A DNA stretch of 64,000 nt, from positions 159 to 64,158 of the forward strand of contig JAAYQE010000119.1 in assembly GCA_012519455.1 (NCBI GenBank), read 5' to 3'. Position numbers and translations under genes: made by a program. Within the stretch, counting starts at the first letter, position 1, and each line of letters opens with the position of its first letter. Under the pieces are notes generated by a model. The model searched no databases and had not been told where the DNA came from. It was given only the letters and a program-made list of their open reading frames with translations. Source of the stretch: Syntrophomonadaceae bacterium (GTDB taxonomy: Bacteria > Bacillota > Ch66 > Ch109). Positions 10,444-49,056 of the stretch are shown here, in pieces.

Positions 10444-11400
10444 TCAGACGGTCAAGTTTCCCTCCCGTAAATCTCTAGCGATTTCCTCCAGGCGACGCAT
10501 ACGATGATTAACCCCGGATTTACCCAGCCGAGGTTCTACCAGGTCCCCCAGTTCTTTAAGACTAGCTTCTGGATGTTTTAAGCGCACTTCAGCTACTTAC
10601 TTAAGTGTAGGCGGCAACCAATCTAATCCCATCTTATCAGCGATATATTGAATATGCTCAACCTGACGTAAACCAGTCCGTACCGCCTTTTCTACATTAG
10701 CGGTATCACAATTAACCTGGCGGTTGACTTGATTACGCAAACCTTTACGCAGGCGAATATCTTCAAATTGCAGCAAAGCCGCATGGGCCCCAATTAGACT
10801 TAAAAAATCCGCAATCTGATCAGCCTCTTTAAGATATACTACGGCCATCTGTTTGCGTTGCACAATTCGTGCCCGTAGTTTAACCCGCTCCAACTGCTTA
10901 ACCAGTTCTCCGGCAAAGTGACTCCGGCTTAACACCATTTCTAAGTGATAACCTGATTCTGGGTTGCTGATCGAACCACATCCCAAAAACACGCCGCGAA
11001 GATAAGCGCGTAAACAACATTGACGCCGGACTAGGGAAGAGCGAATTCCCTCTTCCACCTTGCGTCCTCGGAATATCCCCAGCTGCCTCAGATACAAATC
11101 CTGAGATTTAGGGATCATCAACCGTACCAGGTAACGCTTTCGCTTGTGCAACCGAGTTTGTTGGCGCACCAACAATAACACCGGCCAGGCATATAAATGC
11201 TTACTTAAACGAAAAACCCGACGCGCTACCGCTGCATTATCCGTAGAAACAGTAAATGATAGTTGTTGGCCGGTACTAATTCGTAAAATCCCGCTCGTTC
11301 GAAGTATAGCGGCAAACTCCGCTAAACGACAACAGTTTTTTTCGAAATCAACCCGGGCCAATTCATTTTTAACCTGGTTAGAAAAAGTTCCGGGCGCCAT
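10444..11400 (-). pseudogene. whiA: whiA (sporulation/cell-division DNA-binding regulator) interrupted by an in-frame TAA at 10597-10599
   Basis: ORF 10597..11400 encodes a WhiA N-terminal region with the LAGLIDADG-like fold (MAPGTFSNQVKNELARV...) and ends ...DWLPPTLK*. The same frame continues after the TAA as [50 protein letters not shown], the conserved WhiA C-terminal HTH, to TGA at 10444-10446. The stop replaces a position that is normally E/Q/K, one nucleotide away from TAA. Confidence 0.8.
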
Positions 11401-32964: not shown

Positions 32965-35049
32965 TTAACTGCGACCCACCAATCCCATCCGGTTGACGAT
33001 TACATCCACCATTTCATCTAACGTCGTAATTAAACGAGCAGCTGCATTATAGGCATGTCCGAACTTGACCATGTTGGTCATCTCTTCGTCTAGAGAAACC
33101 GAAGAAACGGACTGCCTTAAGGCATCGATCTGCTGTAATAACAATTCCTGATTCTGGGCCATACGCTTGGCTTCTTGAGTATCCACCCCCAGCTTACCCA
33201 CTGTAGAGCGGATAAAATCATTAAAAGTCGCTTCGCGCTCACCCATAGTTAATTTGTGCTTTAACTGAGCGATATTCAAAGCATTGTCCCCGTTACCGGG
33301 TTTTCCCGGTTCCATCGAAGCTGCAATGCGTTTCAAGCCATCTTCCCCCATCAATCCCTCATTCATCGCTAGAATCGCATTGAGGTTATCGGGATTTACC
33401 TCATTAAAAAAATTCTGATTCCCTAAGCGGGCCTGATTATTTTCCTCTGCAACCGTAAAACTCCAGCTATCTCCTCCATTTATTACCCCGGTAAGCTTAA
33501 AAGAAAATCCTCCGTAATCAAAGGTTTCGTTCTTCGCTTTAGTTTCCACCGGCATCCATACCCCGGCACGTCCAGTAATACTAAAATCATCTACATAACG
33601 GTAGACCGTATAATGGTCCGCGGTGTTATCCATTTGCACCAGATACCGACCCGTCTTCACCTCTGAAGCTGCCGGATCCGCAGTAAATTCCAGGGCTTCC
33701 GCTTCCCCTTGCAAAGCCTGCACCTGATTAGAAACGAGGCCGAATCCCTCCCGATGCAGCTCGTTCACCCGCCAAACCGTTTGATAAGTTAATAAATCGA
33801 GCTGGTTCAAATAATAGGGTATTTCCATATCCCGGGACTCTAAAATAGCCCGTAGCTCTCCGCCCCAAATATCCCCGCCGGTACCCACAATTAATTTTTC
33901 CTCGGTTCGTTCCCAGTATAAATCATGGATAACTACTCCTCTTTCGGTTCCTTTAGATACCTCGAAAGTCCAGGTGTCTCCAGGTTCCGCAGTTCCCGAT
34001 ACCGTAAACGATAAACCGTTGGCCATAAACAAATTGCCCAGGCTGCCTTGACCCACTTTCTCCCAAGTACGCCCTAAATCTGAACCGGTTGCATCTTCCC
34101 AGTACCGATATACCGTATAATTCCCGACGTCATCATCCATTTGCACCACATACTTTCCCGGTTCAGCGTTATATCTAGTTGTGATCGAGGACCAAGCGGC
34201 GTTCTCGCCCCCTTCTACCGCCCTAACCTGCCGGGTAACTCCCAGGTCATCGATATATTCTTCGACCACTACCTCTTCGCGGGCCCTAACCATAAGCTTG
34301 TTTATGGTTAAACCATCCACCAAATCGTAGTCCCCAATACTGACCCGAATCTGCCCCAAGTCTCCCTCGGTTACCCGAATATTTACCAATTTAGCCAGTT
34401 TATCTAACAATAAATCCCGTTTGTCCCGCAAGTCGTTAGCTATGCCGCCACCAATTTCTAAGTCCTGAATCTGCTCGTTCAAATCGCGGATTTGCTGACC
34501 CAAAGTATTAATCTCGTCTTTCTTGATCTGTAAAATTTGATTTAACTCCATCCGGTCATCCTTAAACTGCGTATACATCTGATTCAGAGTGCTGGCCAAT
34601 ACACTGCCTCTTTGCCGAACAATAGCTCGTACGGTTAAACTTTCCGGCGCCTTATTTAATTCCTGCCAAGATTGCCAAAAAAGATCGTAAACCGTGCTTA
34701 TTCCAGATTCAGTCCCCTCATTAAAGACTAACTCCAGTTTGGATAATTGTTCACTGCGCTGTTCCCAGTTACCCAGGTGAATATTTTGATCCCGAAACTG
34801 CTTATCATAAAACAAATTGCGCATACGTAAAATATCCTGTACCCTTACCCCGGTTCCGGTCAGGCCATTTAGGGAAGGCCGATTGAGGCTAGGTACGTTA
34901 TCCGGATAAGAGGTGACTAAAATTCCTTCCTGCCGGCTAAATCCCGGGGTATTCACGTTAGCAATATTATGCCCGGTTACATCCAAAGCTCGCTGCTGGG
35001 TTTGAACTGCCCTCCGTCCAATTTCCAAACCAAAAAAAGTCGACCGCAC
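32965..35049 (-). CDS. flgK: Flagellar hook-associated protein 1 (FlgK)
   Basis: Start set at GTG (35049) giving VRSTFFGLEIGRRA..., with AGGAG upstream. This avoids overlap with the flgN stop at 35066. C-terminal flagellar rod/hook motif. Confidence 0.85.
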   Translation of the reverse strand: MRSTFFGLEIGRRAVQTQQRALDVTGHNIANVNTPGFSRQEGILVTSYPDNVPSLNRPSLNGLTGTGVRVQDILRMRNLFYDKQFRDQNIHLGNWEQRSEQLSKLELVFNEGTESGISTVYDLFWQSWQELNKAPESLTVRAIVRQRGSVLASTLNQMYTQFKDDRMELNQILQIKKDEINTLGQQIRDLNEQIQDLEIGGGIANDLRDKRDLLLDKLAKLVNIRVTEGDLGQIRVSIGDYDLVDGLTINKLMVRAREEVVVEEYIDDLGVTRQVRAVEGGENAAWSSITTRYNAEPGKYVVQMDDDVGNYTVYRYWEDATGSDLGRTWEKVGQGSLGNLFMANGLSFTVSGTAEPGDTWTFEVSKGTERGVVIHDLYWERTEEKLIVGTGGDIWGGELRAILESRDMEIPYYLNQLDLLTYQTVWRVNELHREGFGLVSNQVQALQGEAEALEFTADPAASEVKTGRYLVQMDNTADHYTVYRYVDDFSITGRAGVWMPVETKAKNETFDYGGFSFKLTGVINGGDSWSFTVAEENNQARLGNQNFFNEVNPDNLNAILAMNEGLMGEDGLKRIAASMEPGKPGNGDNALNIAQLKHKLTMGEREATFNDFIRSTVGKLGVDTQEAKRMAQNQELLLQQIDALRQSVSSVSLDEEMTNMVKFGHAYNAAARLITTLDEMVDVIVNRMGLVGRS

Positions 35050-35065
35050 GCTGCTTTCACTCCTA

Positions 35066-35599
35066 TCAAGCTTTCTTGTCAAAAATACGCGCTCGCTCTT
35101 GCCCCGGGGATAAAACTTCCGAACCTTTTTGACCATACACCGAAGAATTATTCCCGACCTGCGTTAATAAATGGACCGTAAAATCCAGGTATTGCAAAGA
35201 ATGCTCAATTAAACTTAAATTCTGCTGATTCAACTGGTTTATAGCCGTGACTACTTTAAAGAGTTGCTCCCCGGTTTGCTGCAAAGCCTCCGCCGGATCA
35301 CCTAGACTTTCCCTTAACCGGGTAAGGGTTAACGCTTGTGACTCCACCCCTAACTCCCGGGCAATTTTAAGCTGTAATTGTCCGCGTTGTGTTTCCAGCT
35401 TCCCCGCTTCCATGACCAGAAGTTCCTCGGTCTTGACTAAACGCTCTAACTCACTTAAATTATTTTCCATAAGCACCCGTTGTTTCTGCTCTGCTATTTC
35501 TAGCAAATGTTGATAAATTCGTACCTGCTCCGCTAAATTCTGCTGCATTAACTCTAGCTGGGAACTAACGGCTACCATTGTGTTTTGATCTGTTGCCAT
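35066..35599 (-). CDS. flgN: Flagellar export chaperone FlgN-family protein
   Basis: FlgN-like coiled-coil protein. Start at the ATG (35599) with AAGGAGG 8 nt upstream. Position matches yvyG/flgN. Confidence 0.7.
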   Translation of the reverse strand: MATDQNTMVAVSSQLELMQQNLAEQVRIYQHLLEIAEQKQRVLMENNLSELERLVKTEELLVMEAGKLETQRGQLQLKIARELGVESQALTLTRLRESLGDPAEALQQTGEQLFKVVTAINQLNQQNLSLIEHSLQYLDFTVHLLTQVGNNSSVYGQKGSEVLSPGQERARIFDKKA

Positions 35600-35731
35600 C
35601 CGGGATTCCTCCTTCATGCCGTAAGCACCATGGTAAAAGTCGTATAAATAAAAACCCGAAAGTCTACAACTTCGGGTTCAACCTCCAATCCCTTCCCAGT
35701 ATTAATAAATCAATAAAATATAATGCTATGC

Positions 35732-36019
35732 TTACTCAATCTCCCGTAAAATGGCTTCGGCGATCTGGGAACTGGAAACTTGATATTTACCCTTTTGAAT
35801 GGCTTCCTTCAAGGCCTCTACCTTATCGGTTCGAATCTCTGGTACGTTCTTTAAAGCTTGAAGGGCTACCTGTAATCCTTTTGCCTGGTCCGATAAATCT
35901 ACTTTATCCACTTCACTTCCCCGAAAACTAGATGACACTTTTACACGAGACGAAGGTTCAATTTTATTCTGACTGTACACCCGGTGTAAACCCTCCACTG
36001 GTTTATAGGTAATCACCAT
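35732..36019 (-). CDS. flgM: Anti-sigma-28 factor FlgM
   Basis: 95 aa. C-terminal ...KVEALKEAIQKGKYQV...IAEAIL is typical of FlgM. Confidence 0.75.
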   Translation of the reverse strand: MVITYKPVEGLHRVYSQNKIEPSSRVKVSSSFRGSEVDKVDLSDQAKGLQVALQALKNVPEIRTDKVEALKEAIQKGKYQVSSSQIAEAILREIE

Positions 36020-36244
36020 TTTAATCCCTCCTCGTCTCGGTGATCTTCATACCCATTTTGACGCCGAGCATTACCTCTGCTTCAAACCCCTACTACTAAC
36101 TTCTTCGAAATCCCAAACCAAGATAATTAAGACCTTGAAGCCAAATTATCACCTGTATGCTTATTATTACTCCCTATTTCTTAATTATATTCTAAACTTT
36201 ATCTATGCTTAATTCTCAACTTTAAAATGATGAGGAGGCCCGGT

Positions 36245-36664
36245 TTACCTTTTTCGTGGTCCGGCCGTATGCATCCGCTCTTTGCGGGTTGAGGATAACG
36301 ATAAATTATCGATCTGAGGTTTCCTTTCCCCCACTTTTTGCTCAAACTTAGCGGCTAGATTAGAACGACATTTTTCGCACAAACGACCGGAGTCTATCGG
36401 GGCCCCACAGCTCCCACAAGTTAAAGCTCCGTCCAGCTCCAATCCTTTTACAATTAATTTACCGCTACGCAGAAAACGAATAATTTTTTCAACTGCTATT
36501 CCGGTTGCCTCACTAACCTCGGGTATGCTTTTTCCTTCATTATCCCGAACATAGGCCCGAACTATCTCAAACTCCTTCTCTTCCGCCTCAATACAAGCAG
36601 GACATAGATAGCGATTCACATAACGAAACAGTTTACCGCACTGCGGACAATTTCGAAAATCCAT
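36245..36664 (-). CDS. YvyF-like flagellar-operon zinc-ribbon protein
   Basis: 139 aa. N-terminal CPQCGK...CPAC and C-terminal CGSCGAP...CEKC zinc ribbons. Synteny with yvyF. Confidence 0.65.
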   Translation of the reverse strand: MDFRNCPQCGKLFRYVNRYLCPACIEAEEKEFEIVRAYVRDNEGKSIPEVSEATGIAVEKIIRFLRSGKLIVKGLELDGALTCGSCGAPIDSGRLCEKCRSNLAAKFEQKVGERKPQIDNLSLSSTRKERMHTAGPRKR

Positions 36665-36754
36665 TTCTTGGCCCCCCTTTATATTTTAGATTTCTGGTAA
36701 CATTGTACCGAAAAAACTACCATTTATCCAGGTTAACTTACGCTTTCTACTTAA

Positions 36755-37534
36755 TCACACGACAATCACCCGACCAGTCGCTACGGTGGCCACCTGCACC
36801 GGGCCACTACCGGCTTGCTGTAATACCCGCGCACATTCTCCGCAGGTAATACCGCTGGTTAACACATCATCAATTAGAAGAATCGGCTGACCGCGTACCC
36901 GCTCCGGCTGCTGAGCTCGAAAAACTCCTGATTGAATATTACTTAACCGTTCACGTCGCCCCAATCGAGCCTGGGGAGGAGTATGGACCACCCGCATCAA
37001 AACCTCTCTTCCCCATTCCCAGTTTAATTCCTGGGCCACCACCTCCGCCAGTAGTTCCGCCTGATTAAAACCGCGTTCAAAAGCCCGCTTAGGATGCAGC
37101 GGCACTGGTACCACCAGCGCTGGTTCAATTCACAACTCTTCTTTTATCACCCCGGCCAATAATTTACCCAAAGGACGAGCCAGAGTAATCTTACCCTGGT
37201 ACTTAAACGCATGGATCGCCTCACGCAGCAAACCTTCATAAAGGCCGATCGCCCGCGCTCGAGAAAATAAGGGCGGATGATTTTGACATTCCCTGCAGTA
37301 AAAAGCCAATTCAGGTCGCGGTCTCTGACTAAAAGCACCATGATTTTCCGCCTCGTACCGGCCACAGCATTCGCAGATACTTTGTGTCCTTCGCGCTCCT
37401 AAACGCTCCACGCATCTAAAACAAACGACCGCTCCAGGATAACGACCGATAGACCAGGACCGGCCGCATAACGGACATTCCTCCGGCCGGGGATAAACTA
37501 AATCCAAAAACGTATTCCAAATCCATTTAAACAT
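36755..37534 (-). pseudogene. comFC: comFC (ComF-family phosphoribosyltransferase competence protein) interrupted by an in-frame TGA at 37130-37132
   Basis: The N-terminal zinc-finger part (CPLCGR...CFRCV...CECCGR...CREC) ends ...GVIKEEL*. The same frame continues as IEPALVVPVPLHPKRAFERGFNQAELLA... (PRT-domain core) from GTG at 37114. The two ORF-track fragments are in one frame, separated only by the TGA. Confidence 0.8.
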
Positions 37535-37538
37535 ACAC

Positions 37539-39671
37539 CTATGCCTCCCCCCCTATAAACCCCTGCGCTCGTGCTACTTGATTCATCCTCTGAATTTGGG
37601 CGAGAGCGGACCGCATGGCCGGAGTAATTCGGGTTCCAACCAGCCAAACTTTTCCCCATGGATAAACCTCAGTGCGTCCGGCCCGACCGGCCATCTGGAT
37701 CAAAGTCCCGGCGTCAAAGATTTTTTCCGCATCCGCCAATAGCACCATTACGTTAACCTGGGAAATGGTAATTCCGCGTTCCAGGATCGTCGTAGTCACC
37801 AGCACCGGAAAACGGCCCCGGGCAAATTCTCCCCGTTTCCAATCGCGTTGGGGGTCTTTAGCGTGACAAAATTCGGCCCAACGTTTGGAACCCGAAGCCG
37901 ATTCCGCCCCCCACCACGGTTCCACCAAATTGAACGGCGCCTCCTGAGTCGCACGATTAACTAAACTGGCTACTCGTTCCGCCAGTTGAACCGAAGGTAC
38001 AAAAATAAATAATTGTACCTGATCTACCGCCACAGTCTGATAAAGCAACTGGATTACGGATGAAGGCAAGGTCCAACGTTGATCACCCTTAGGATAACGA
38101 AGCTGCCGGTCCTCTACCAATTCTGGTTCCGGCACCGGGTAACCATGATAACGCGCTGGAATATAAATCAAGCCCATCTTACCCTCTAGGGCTTGTTTTT
38201 GCCTCGACTCCTCTGGGGTAGCGGTTAAATATATTATTTTCCCCCCGGGCTTCCGTGCCCGCTGGACCGCATAATGCAACATCGGACTCTCGGCGTAAGG
38301 ATAAGCATCTACTTCATCCAAAATTACCAGCTCAAACTGATGATAAAAACGTAAAGTCTGATGCGTAGTGGACACATAAATATCCGCCTCTCCAAAACGC
38401 TGCTCACTTCCTCCGTAGAGAGCTAGTACCCGATAGCCTGAAAAAGCCTCCTGTATCCTCGGTGCCAACTCCCTCACTACTTCCCGGCGAGGTATGGCGT
38501 ACAGTACTCGGGCTCCCCGGGACAAGGCCCCGGCTAGGGCTGAAAAGGTAACCTCAGTTTTACCGGCTCCACAAACCGCCCAGACCAGGCATTCCGAAAG
38601 TGGGCTATCTTCCACAAACTGTTTCACCGCTACAGCTGCCTGTTGCTGTGCGTCGGTTAGGGAAAAATGTAGCTTAACAGCTGGGACCACGTTTGGCACC
38701 GGTGCTGGGGTGAGGGATACCCCGGGCAAGGTGTAAAAGGGCATACATTCCCGGGACAGCCCCATGGTCCGACAATCTTCACAGCATCCACAACCCGATC
38801 GGCCACATAAAGGACAAACCGTAAACGTAATTCGCCCAGCTTGTCCACAGCGGTTACAAACCAAACACCCAGATTTATCCCGACCCACGGCCGGCAAGAG
38901 ATGGGACTTCCCCTGTAACGCCTGCGCCTGATAAAAATTTTGCACCTTTTCTGGGATCCACTTAGAAGCAACAGATTCCTCTTCCTGGGTTAAAAACCAA
39001 TTACTAAGTGGTTCGGGTAAACGAGAAGCATTTTCAGCCAAAAAAGCTCTAATTTCTCGCGGTAACAGAGCGCGCCCGGCTAATAGCGTACCTAACGGCT
39101 GATCTTCATCGTTCGCTTCCCGTTGCTTCGTCTCCCGGACTTCACGATCCTCCAACCAACCAGAGGCCTTTAAAATCCGCAACTTAAAACCTGATTCCTT
39201 AAATGCAACCGGGCGGGCTTCGGGTGCCAGTCTTTGTAGGGCTTTGTGTGCATGTTGCCAGCGCTGCAAGAGCAAGTAATCCAAGAACTGGGAACCGGTA
39301 TTCACTGGAGGCTCAACGACCTCCCCGACGCCCCCCTTTGCGCTTCCCGACCCTCCCTGTATCCATTCCAGCAGCACCTGCCATAGCCGACGCAGGTATT
39401 CCCATCCCCTTACGCGTTCCTGAAAGGGCCTAACCCCAGGGGCCTCGGTTAAGCTTACCCCGACCCGTTCCTCTCGGGTTGATATGGACTGCAACACATA
39501 ATAAGCCAAACCAATCGGCAAAGGCGGCGTTAAAAGGGCTAAACGCTCCAGGCCTTGATCCCGCTTAAGTATTTCTAGATCAAACTCCGGTCGATGACTG
39601 AAAAACAAACGATAATACGTCTGATTCCAGGCTAAATAAACCTGATAAGGAACATAATTATTGATAAGCAT
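37539..39671 (-). CDS. comFA: ComFA-like DEAD/DEAH-box helicase with zinc finger and an N-terminal extension of about 270 aa
   Basis: Zinc finger CNRCGQ...CPLCGRSGCGCCEDC, Walker A VWAVCGAGKTEV, DEAD-like ILDEVDAY, and a helicase C-domain. Lies directly upstream of comFC. Confidence 0.75.
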   Translation of the reverse strand: MLINNYVPYQVYLAWNQTYYRLFFSHRPEFDLEILKRDQGLERLALLTPPLPIGLAYYVLQSISTREERVGVSLTEAPGVRPFQERVRGWEYLRRLWQVLLEWIQGGSGSAKGGVGEVVEPPVNTGSQFLDYLLLQRWQHAHKALQRLAPEARPVAFKESGFKLRILKASGWLEDREVRETKQREANDEDQPLGTLLAGRALLPREIRAFLAENASRLPEPLSNWFLTQEEESVASKWIPEKVQNFYQAQALQGKSHLLPAVGRDKSGCLVCNRCGQAGRITFTVCPLCGRSGCGCCEDCRTMGLSRECMPFYTLPGVSLTPAPVPNVVPAVKLHFSLTDAQQQAAVAVKQFVEDSPLSECLVWAVCGAGKTEVTFSALAGALSRGARVLYAIPRREVVRELAPRIQEAFSGYRVLALYGGSEQRFGEADIYVSTTHQTLRFYHQFELVILDEVDAYPYAESPMLHYAVQRARKPGGKIIYLTATPEESRQKQALEGKMGLIYIPARYHGYPVPEPELVEDRQLRYPKGDQRWTLPSSVIQLLYQTVAVDQVQLFIFVPSVQLAERVASLVNRATQEAPFNLVEPWWGAESASGSKRWAEFCHAKDPQRDWKRGEFARGRFPVLVTTTILERGITISQVNVMVLLADAEKIFDAGTLIQMAGRAGRTEVYPWGKVWLVGTRITPAMRSALAQIQRMNQVARAQGFIGGEA

Positions 39672-39827
39672 CGTTATTTCACCTGGAATTAATTATACTC
39701 AATTCCGTCTAGAGCTTAAACCAGCCTTTTCCCATCTAGACAAAAGAAAAAAGCCTGACCGTATAAGAGTCGTATTCTTACCCGGACAACAGGCTTTTAA
39801 TTTTAACCGCTCCGCTTAACCCCCTGG

Positions 39828-40592
39828 CTAGCCCATTTTAGCCAGTTGTTCGTGTAAATATTCGTTCAATACTTTGATATAAGTACCCTTCATGCCTAAA
39901 GAACGGGCTTGAATGACCCCAGCACTTTCCAGCTTGCGTAAAGCATTAACAATCACCGAACGCGTTAACATATACTTATCCGCCAGACGTATCGCCACTA
40001 CAAAACCTTCGTCTCCCTCTAATTCTTTAAAAATATACTTAACCGCTTCAATCTCCGAATAAGAAAGCACGGCTAAGGCTTGGGCTACAGCATCTTTTTT
40101 TCGATTTATTTTTTCCGCTTGTTCCGACAGGAAACGCAAAATCTGCAAACCAATAACCGTTGCCCCTACCTCAGCTAAAATAATCGCCGACGTTGAAAAC
40201 TCCTCCGGTTTGGCCAACACTACGGTACCCAGCCGAAGCGGCCCCCCATAGATTGGAATAACAGTTAACAAAGTCTCCGGTGCTACGCGACAACCCACTC
40301 CAGTCTCAAAAAAACTAGCCAGCCATTCTAGATACTCTTCAGTTAAAATTGTCTCACTCAGTTGCCGTCCACCTATCATAGGCTGTGATAATCCGGGGTA
40401 ATTACAGCTACCCAAGATTTCACCCTTCTCACCAATAATACAAACATGACTTTCGGTGAGTCGAGACAAACTACTAGATAATTCTTCAAAATCAGGAGGA
40501 TTATCTGATTGGCGCTGTACTAACTGATTCAGGAGTCTGGTCTTCCCTAATAGAACCTCTAGTTCGTTCAAGATCAGATTCTCCTTTCTCAA
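39828..40592 (-). CDS. codY: GTP-sensing pleiotropic repressor CodY
   Basis: 254 aa. GAF-like N-terminus and the C-terminal HTH ...RSVIVNALRKLESAGVIQARSLGMKGTYIKV. Confidence 0.9.
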   Translation of the reverse strand: MRKENLILNELEVLLGKTRLLNQLVQRQSDNPPDFEELSSSLSRLTESHVCIIGEKGEILGSCNYPGLSQPMIGGRQLSETILTEEYLEWLASFFETGVGCRVAPETLLTVIPIYGGPLRLGTVVLAKPEEFSTSAIILAEVGATVIGLQILRFLSEQAEKINRKKDAVAQALAVLSYSEIEAVKYIFKELEGDEGFVVAIRLADKYMLTRSVIVNALRKLESAGVIQARSLGMKGTYIKVLNEYLHEQLAKMG

Positions 40593-47160: not shown

Positions 47161-48219
47161 TTAATTAACCGTAAACTGCATTTGCACCGGTTGTTGCAAA
47201 CTTTTTCCCCCTGTGGATTTAATTTCTTTACTGAGGTTTAGAGTAAAAATTTGTCCAGGAGTATACCCCGTCCGTGGTGGTTTAACAACTACGGACTGTT
47301 GGTCCGGGCCGGGTTCTCTGGTTATACTAACCGGATAACCGCATTCATCGGTTACGATTACGTTTAATTTCGTTAGGGTGGTGGTATCGACCGGTAAATT
47401 AAACCGTATCGTCCATACTTTAAAAGGATCTTGGATTGTTTGAGCCTCCCAAATCTGAGGCGCTTCTGCTCCCGGCTCGGGCTGTGGCACCGGCGACTGG
47501 GTACTGTATTCCACATCTACACCCCGACTTTGCAAGGCCTCAATATGGACCAAGGCTAACGATCCGGGGCGAAGATCCAGATAATTATAAAACAGATCAA
47601 TGAAAGCTCCAGACCCCAGACCATTATTTTGACTGTTAAGCACTAGAGGAGTAATATCTCGGATTTGATTATTCCAAAGATATACCTCTTCTAGATTACT
47701 TAAACCCTGCAAAGCTGTGACCTCCGTGATCATATTTTCTCCGAGACTTAGGACTTGCAGGCCCGTAAGATTTACCAGGGCGGAAAGGTCACTGATTTGG
47801 TTTCCAGCAAGATAAAGCGTTTGTAGCCCATTAAGGTTGGCCAGAGGCGATAAATCTTCAATCTGATTATAACTAAGCTCTAACTCCTGTAAGCCGGTCA
47901 GAGAAGCCAACGCGGACAAATTACTAATCTGGTTCCCAGCTAGATAAAGACTTTCCAGGTTAACGGCGTATTCAAGACCGGTTAAATCACTAATCGTGCC
48001 TTGCTCTGCCGTTAAACTGGTTAACCCGGCTAAATCTCCTACCGACAAGGGGCTCGTACTTTTTCCCAGAGCCTCGAGTACCGCTGTTTCCAAACTAGGA
48101 TCATTAAAATTCACTATGTCTCCCGAACTTCCCGCAGCCAGGCTGGGTACTATCCCCAAATTTAAGGAGCAGATAAAAAACCATAAAACTAGAACTACGG
48201 TACGTACTCGGATAAGCAT
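47161..48219 (-). CDS. Secreted leucine-rich-repeat (internalin-like) protein with a C-terminal Big_5/SbsA-Ig-like module
   Basis: Signal peptide, then about 7 LRRs (LxxLxxLxLxxNQIxDLSxL), then ...FKVWTIRFNLPVDTTTL...YTPGQIFTLNLSKEIKSTGGKSL...QFTV. Confidence 0.75.
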   Translation of the reverse strand: MLIRVRTVVLVLWFFICSLNLGIVPSLAAGSSGDIVNFNDPSLETAVLEALGKSTSPLSVGDLAGLTSLTAEQGTISDLTGLEYAVNLESLYLAGNQISNLSALASLTGLQELELSYNQIEDLSPLANLNGLQTLYLAGNQISDLSALVNLTGLQVLSLGENMITEVTALQGLSNLEEVYLWNNQIRDITPLVLNSQNNGLGSGAFIDLFYNYLDLRPGSLALVHIEALQSRGVDVEYSTQSPVPQPEPGAEAPQIWEAQTIQDPFKVWTIRFNLPVDTTTLTKLNVIVTDECGYPVSITREPGPDQQSVVVKPPRTGYTPGQIFTLNLSKEIKSTGGKSLQQPVQMQFTVN

Positions 48220-48240
48220 CGGTTTCCTGGTTCAACCTCC

Positions 48241-49056
48241 TTACGGGTTATTCCCCTCGCTCGTTTCTTCGGCTGGTGTTGTTTCATCTTCAGCGGTGCC
48301 GGTGCTGCCATCTTCGGTAGTCCCTTCTTCAGTAGTACCGTCATTTATGGTTTCATCATCGGGATTGCTGGTTCCATCTTCAGTGGTTCCATCTTCAGTG
48401 GTTCCATCTTCAGTATTTTCGTCTTCAGTATTTTCGTCTTCAGTATTTTCGTCTTCTGGATCAATTATTTCGTCTTCCGTATCGGATTCAATCTGACTGA
48501 ATAAGCGATTCAGCAGTCCCGGAGAGATGACTAACCGCGCACGGGTGCTTTTTCCTTTGGTTAAGCTTACAGTATTACCATTAACTAGGGCTACTTTATT
48601 TTCCAGATCAATTTGAATCTGCTTCCCGTCTTTTTCTACTACCAACAGATTCGTCGTCTCGTCTAACGTAAAGTCAGCTCCGAAGCCATTGTTTATTGCG
48701 TTAACCGGTAGGAGTGCTCGCTGGTTCTTGATTACTTTAGAAGCTTTTTTCTCCTTATTTCGCTCCCGATTGTTTTCCTTGTTTTGTTTGTCTCCTTTAT
48801 TCTCTTCTTTGTTTTTCTCTACCTTACCCTTTTCCTTATCTTTATCCGGTTTACCCTGACCTTTATTCTTATCCTTGGTATCATCTTCAGCGATATTCTC
48901 TTCTTCAACCACCATTTGCTGAACATTAACGTTTTTTGCCTTTCCGGGCGCAGCGCCATTATTTCCCGGCCCACCTTTAGCTTCTACCAAACCGGCTGGG
49001 AATACAATAAGGGTAACGCTGATTAATAAGGATAGTAATTTTTTACATTTCGACAT
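48241..49056 (-). CDS. Secreted protein with a K/E-rich low-complexity region, a copper-amine-oxidase-N-terminal-like domain and C-terminal acidic T-E-D pentapeptide repeats
   Basis: Signal peptide. FTLDETTNLLVVEKDGKQIQIDLENKVALVNGNTVSL resembles the Cu_amine_oxidN1 fold. The C-terminus is (TEDEN)x3(TEDGT)x3. Confidence 0.55.
   Translation of the reverse strand: MSKCKKLLSLLISVTLIVFPAGLVEAKGGPGNNGAAPGKAKNVNVQQMVVEEENIAEDDTKDKNKGQGKPDKDKEKGKVEKNKEENKGDKQNKENNRERNKEKKASKVIKNQRALLPVNAINNGFGADFTLDETTNLLVVEKDGKQIQIDLENKVALVNGNTVSLTKGKSTRARLVISPGLLNRLFSQIESDTEDEIIDPEDENTEDENTEDENTEDGTTEDGTTEDGTSNPDDETINDGTTEEGTTEDGSTGTAEDETTPAEETSEGNNP
48370..48459. repeat. Six tandem 15-bp repeat units (three each of two variants) encoding the acidic pentapeptide repeats
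   Basis: ggttccatcttcagt x3 followed by attttcgtcttcagt x3. Confidence 0.8.

Follow-up and report, generated by a model that had tools for sequence, protein, structure and literature searches.

In an uncultured Syntrophomonadaceae species of biogas reactors, the comFC gene is interrupted by an in-frame opal codon at codon 135. We put at roughly 60% the probability that this codon is a genuine nonsense mutation, that it is fixed in the sampled population, and that it inactivates or strongly attenuates ComFC. The gene lies in a 64-kb stretch of metagenome-derived DNA, referred to here as the window; the features discussed are collected in Table 1. Translation of the minus strand from 37534 gives ...GVIKEEL, TGA, IEPALVVPVPLHPKRAFERGFNQ...GRVIVV, with no further stop until the terminal TGA, and the split of comFC by a single in-frame TGA (37130-37132) that an earlier note on this DNA had described is thus seen directly in the sequence. 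With the stop codon counted in, comFC comprises 259 codons. The two halves have been deposited separately, the N-terminal fragment as NLK52182.1 ('hypothetical protein', GenBank) and the C-terminal fragment (ORF 36755..37114) as NLK52181.1 (119 aa, 'ComF family protein', NCBI). Of the in-frame, stop-separated ORF pairs in the 64 kb, none but comFC and whiA had the appearance of an interrupted conserved gene.

Table 1. Positions in the window of comFC, its parts, and the neighbouring and comparison features.
Feature	Position	Strand	Remarks
whiA	10444..11400	minus	in-frame TAA at 10597-10599, within the C-terminal HTH domain; polymorphic comparison case
comFC, whole frame	36755..37534	minus	ATG at 37534, internal TGA at 37130-37132, terminal TGA at 36755-36757
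C-terminal 124 codons of comFC plus stop	36755..37129	minus	first core strand VVPV, PPi loop PLHPKRAFERGFNQ, PRPP loop LLIDDVLTSGIT
8-bp hairpin with GGU loop	37102..37120	minus	starts 9 nt 3' of the UGA; built from the ALVVPV codons
GTG, Val141	37112..37114	minus	NCBI start of the C-terminal fragment; 15 nt past the TGA; possible reinitiation codon
In-frame opal TGA	37130..37132	minus	codon 135; plus strand reads TCA; next base A (UGA-A context)
N-terminal fragment of ComFC, 134 aa	37133..37534	minus	double zinc ribbon, one strand and the first two PRT-like helices
comFA-like DEAD/Helicase_C helicase gene, 710 aa	37539..39671	minus	directly upstream of comFC; NLK52183.1

The joined 259-residue ComFC was matched by NCBIfam models as one continuous match spanning the stop (NF008616 residues 37-251; TIGR00201 residues 79-251), which bears out the claim that the two same-frame fragments together make up a complete ComFC. 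The scores were 118.5 bits for NF008616 GntX (E = 3e-34, cut-off 304) and 90.8 bits for TIGR00201 comF (E = 1e-25, cut-off 233.55). Judged from these profile scores, homology to the ComF/GntX models is clear, yet below the equivalog level. On the N-terminal fragment, Pfam DZR_2 scored 27.5 bits (cut-off 27), and the eight cysteines (C20, C23, C38, C41, C54, C57, C80 and C83) were invariant across 20 homologues. Pfam Pribosyltran taken by itself reached only 22 on the C-terminal part, under its cut-off of 26.3; both LLIDDVLTSGIT and VVPVPLHPKRAFERGFNQ, which are type-I PRT-like loop features, are present in the C half. A feature of the ComF family that is absent here is an uninterrupted frame for both domains in a single polypeptide; 114/114 aligned full-length homologues are unbroken proteins. 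A phmmer search of ComFC against PDB sequences gave no match, and profile and fold searches were required.

The gene order at the locus is codY, the comFA-like helicase gene, comFC, yvyF, flgM, flgN and flgK. The TAG stop of the helicase gene lies 4 nt ahead of the comFC ATG, and independent contigs show an identical gene order. From comFA to flgK this is the Bacillus subtilis order, but with comFB missing. The helicase has about 330 residues, including CxxC-rich stretches, before its DEAD/Helicase_C core, and at 710 aa it is much longer than B. subtilis ComFA. A scan for promoters and terminators gave nothing above shuffled sequences. Through polarity, the early stop of comFC might in principle also act on the downstream yvyF and flgM (32965-39671, minus strand). 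The longest ORFs of flgN (35066-35617) and flgK (32965-35136) share an overlap of about 70 nt; other assemblies give shorter products, FlgN of 177 aa and FlgK of 694 aa, and the true starts are probably internal. Elsewhere in the window, the gene for a leucine-rich-repeat protein (352 aa) adjoins that for a copper amine oxidase N-terminal domain protein (271 aa) at 47161-49056 on the minus strand; this pair lies in a stretch of lower GC content (0.39 at 48-50 kb) in which the GC skew likewise levels off.

In an AlphaFold2 model built on the joined ComFC sequence (pLDDT 89.9, pTM 0.86), residue 135 sits in a six-residue loop that leads from helix 116-133 to strand 140-143. The top Foldseek match of this model in the PDB was 7p0h, H. 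pylori ComF (E = 2.9e-6). In that structure the PRT domain begins about 30 residues ahead of the equivalent strand (PMC9005727). A profile of 20 homologues aligns with the PRT domain of PurF from the helix before the stop (…LGKLLAGVIKEEL) on through VVPVP. The TGA thus falls within the PRT-like fold, in a short loop at the surface that joins the second helix to the first core beta-strand, and neither fragment holds a whole domain. The earlier note had assigned the stop to a linker between the zinc-finger and phosphoribosyltransferase domains; the model and the PurF alignment place it instead in a loop inside the PRT-like domain.

In overall design the protein resembles H. pylori ComFC (PDB 7P0H), B. 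subtilis ComFC and E. coli GntX, with which it shares an N-terminal Cys-rich zinc ribbon and a type-I PRT-like domain bearing PPi and PRPP loops (LLIDDVLTSGIT). It differs from these proteins in the frame broken by TGA and in having two zinc ribbons (8 Cys), and its N-terminal part is longer than that of the 191-aa H. pylori ComFC. By sequence, fold and context, comFC is a ComF-family gene. Position 135 itself is variable among the 114 homologues, the eight commonest states being E, L, P, gap, A, G, D and M; Cys and Trp are outside these eight. Four relatives (P0005, P0006, P0007 and P0011), which form the closest clade after the sister lineage at 45-47% identity, carry insertions exactly at the codon-135 loop. 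These insertions are 60-100 aa long, Gly/Ala/Ser-rich, low in complexity and disordered. The alignment marks this hypervariable helix-to-strand loop as an insertion hotspot and as the most permissive site in ComFC, and because relatives accommodate such insertions there, the fold tolerates a very loose connection at this point.

The stop recurs outside the window. Ten contigs encode the identical 134-aa product, and the TGA is present in all of them (10/10). These contigs derive from the biogas-fermenter metagenome runs SRR3184675, SRR3184648 and SRR3184554, from other ENA assemblies and from Logan; at least three sequencing runs are represented, and the assemblers include MEGAHIT and SPAdes. 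Identity of the contigs to the window is 99.8-99.96%, and other SNPs distinguish them from one another. A look-up by way of the 134-aa product is biased in that it finds TGA alleles only and leaves sense alleles invisible, and the unbiased evidence consists only of the negative exact look-ups of sense variants and of contigs anchored on ComFA or YvyF. Full-length ComFC with any of the six residues that a single base change would give at codon 135 (R, G, L, S, C or W) was absent from a collection of 15 billion proteins (0/6). The best full-length homologue found was only 63% identical. ComFA- or YvyF-anchored contigs that reach codon 135 have TGA as well. For comFC, then, of the two explanations that the earlier note had offered, consensus error or genuine decay, it is the genuine one that gains support, with TGA in all contigs covering the site and in at least three runs.

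Comparison with relatives bears on the age of the stop. In the nearest relative, P0001 (Logan SRR8925799), ComFC is an uninterrupted protein of 258 aa with GGC (Gly) at codon 135. Identity to P0001 is 72% in the C half and 56% in the N half. The codon-position identities of the C half against P0001 are 0.77/0.82/0.39, the pattern that purifying selection leaves when it has acted through most of the time since the two diverged. The C half keeps every family-invariant residue and has no second lesion. With six outgroups, a relative-rate count assigned 2 derived substitutions of the C half to the window lineage and 8 to the sister lineage. Nothing in these comparisons suggests that constraint was relaxed beyond the stop; because the C half is free of further damage and of rate acceleration, either the mutation would be recent or the C half would still be in use. 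For the same reason, to speak of a decay of competence and developmental functions, as had been suggested, over-reads the data. We infer that the stop is recent relative to the split from the nearest intact relative.

Variation within the species is limited. A single SNP, synonymous, was found in comFC, which is too few to gauge selection; of the 10 SNPs that comFA shows across the contigs, 6 are non-synonymous. A ComFA scan of GTDB contigs found no relative, so the species is absent from the GTDB species representatives. The joined ComFC, searched against JGI metagenome contigs, returned relatives at 33-38% identity only, none of them from the species or its near relatives.

The expected outcome of translation follows from the position of the stop. 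At the comFC ATG the predicted duplex with the anti-Shine-Dalgarno sequence is -14.6 kcal/mol, compared with a median of -10.1 for the genes of the window. Given this strong Shine-Dalgarno sequence and an ATG 4 nt past the comFA stop, ribosomes would be expected to load efficiently on comFC and then to meet the UGA at codon 135. Termination at this codon would free a 134-aa fragment consisting of the zinc ribbons and two helices. Since such a fragment should be unable to build the PRT fold alone, ComFC activity, together with any ComFC-dependent natural transformation, would be lost or strongly reduced. H. pylori ComFC is membrane-associated, binds ssDNA and is needed for natural transformation, for which both of its domains are required (PMC9005727).

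It is also possible, though in our judgement rather unlikely, that the interrupted gene still works and is kept by selection. Full-length protein could be made by readthrough of the UGA, with Trp-tRNA competing against RF2, or the two halves could be made separately by reinitiation at GUG141 or GUG144 and then assemble non-covalently. The fully intact and slowly evolving C half would be accounted for in this way, and the stop stands at a variable position of the 114-homologue alignment, in the loop that accepts insertions of 60-100 aa. The base after the UGA is an A, which favours readthrough. Under our preferred reading, too, about 0.1-1% of ribosomes may, by analogy with E. coli, read the UGA with Trp-tRNA, and because position 135 accepts any residue the resulting full-length ComFC would probably be functional. 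Stop codons of E. coli are read through at a baseline level of 1e-3 to 1e-2, and at UGA it is Trp-tRNA that does so, against the competition of RF2 (PMC10570021). Levels of this kind are normally low, however, and diverged relatives with the same TGA were not found, the nearest relative having GGC in an uninterrupted frame. The likeness to the near-cognate UGA readthrough known from E. coli reporters and nudL (PMC10570021) lies in a UGA followed by in-frame conserved coding sequence and in a position 135 that would accept Trp, whereas the UGA of comFC is not conserved in relatives.

For reinitiation, two GTG codons are available 15 and 24 nt past the TGA, and the second of them, GTG144, has a Shine-Dalgarno-like element, GGUGG, with a predicted duplex of -7.8 kcal/mol. 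Pairing at the restart candidates ATT136, GTG141 and GTG144 is nevertheless weak (-3.7 to -7.8 kcal/mol, with GTG141 at -3.7), and GTG141 and GTG144 are located within or adjoining the 8-bp hairpin. In addition, a fragment starting at Val144 would be without the first core strand. A more specific proposal, that the opal codon is maintained as a gate or attenuator of competence, with ComFC made by readthrough or in two pieces through reinitiation at GUG141, seems to us decidedly improbable. If the split gene were functional, it would be something new, in that the PRT fold of ComFC could be split. We continue to prefer a fixed nonsense mutation that removes or strongly lowers ComFC activity.

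A sequencing or assembly error in the consensus of the metagenome-assembled genome (MAG) is a further rival explanation. The window does come from a MAG, several of the contigs have low coverage of about 3-4x, and another assembly fails to reproduce the second stop of the window, that in whiA. For comFC, however, the TGA is reproduced by different assemblers and on varied SNP backgrounds; as it is also found on the ComFA- and YvyF-anchored contigs and no sense variant is on record, an artefact is very unlikely.

The comparison with whiA separates the two stops further. The earlier note had named whiA as a second conserved gene with a nonsense codon, and its TAA (10597-10599) is indeed present in the window. 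In sample ERZ773357, contig L028, which is 99.88% identical to the window, has GAA (Glu) at this codon and encodes an intact WhiA of 318 aa. The same sample gives a second contig, L004, in which comFC codon 135 is TGA; a sample with intact whiA therefore keeps the comFC stop, and the whiA stop is not evidence of a process common to both genes, contrary to the shared cause that had been proposed. An exact look-up of the 267-aa WhiA fragment returned nothing, and the TAA allele is probably not shared. Exact look-ups of three WhiA sense variants also returned nothing; they missed L028 because its WhiA differs in addition at F110I. Two other assemblies break on either side of whiA, with contigs L029 and L030 ending near 11212 and L007 and L008 beginning at 10492, which suggests strain heterogeneity or low coverage there. 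The whiA TAA is either strain-specific or a consensus error. We also note that YvcK is called as 424 aa in other assemblies.

Decoding of the UGA as selenocysteine, with the downstream hairpin as a bacterial SECIS element, is highly improbable. Selenoproteins are common in the Syntrophomonadaceae, and the 8-bp hairpin that begins 9 nt after the UGA has a distance and a GGU loop compatible with loose models of the bacterial SECIS. However, the hairpin is only marginally significant (z = -1.81, with 12/200 shuffles folding as well), a 101-nt context gives a z of 0.02, and the hairpin is made of codons of the conserved PALVVPVP motif. An Rfam search over 35500-40000 gave a chance-level match only. 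Rather than a redox site, codon 135 belongs to a surface loop of variable sequence, and neither Cys nor Trp is among its eight commonest residues in the 114 homologues. No tRNA genes were found within the 64-kb window.

Reassignment of TGA (code 4 or 25), or its general suppression in the organism, can be dismissed: although TGA is the least used terminator of the 46 window ORFs (23 TAA, 15 TAG and 8 TGA), it ends comFC itself at a length matching that of homologues, an in-frame TGA occurs in only one conserved gene in 64 kb, and this stop-codon usage is that of the standard code.

The interruption of comFC is a further example of a type of event that has already been documented. In Lactococcus lactis subsp. 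cremoris, late competence genes have decayed through conserved premature stop codons (bioRxiv 10.1101/147132). The two cases have in common a premature stop in a late competence gene, carried by every sampled member of the lineage; they differ in that a single lesion in a single gene is seen here and the neighbouring comFA is intact. The main value of the finding lies in annotation and quality control. NLK52182.1 and NLK52181.1, carried in GenBank as two CDSs, are the halves of one disrupted comFC, and within one MAG a real, population-wide nonsense allele can be told apart from a stop, that of whiA, which is strain-specific or a consensus error. To our knowledge, a ComFC-type protein is needed for transformation in every species where this has been tested. 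The data suggest that this Syntrophomonadaceae species of biogas reactors has lost or strongly reduced a transformation protein, a kind of loss that is well known.
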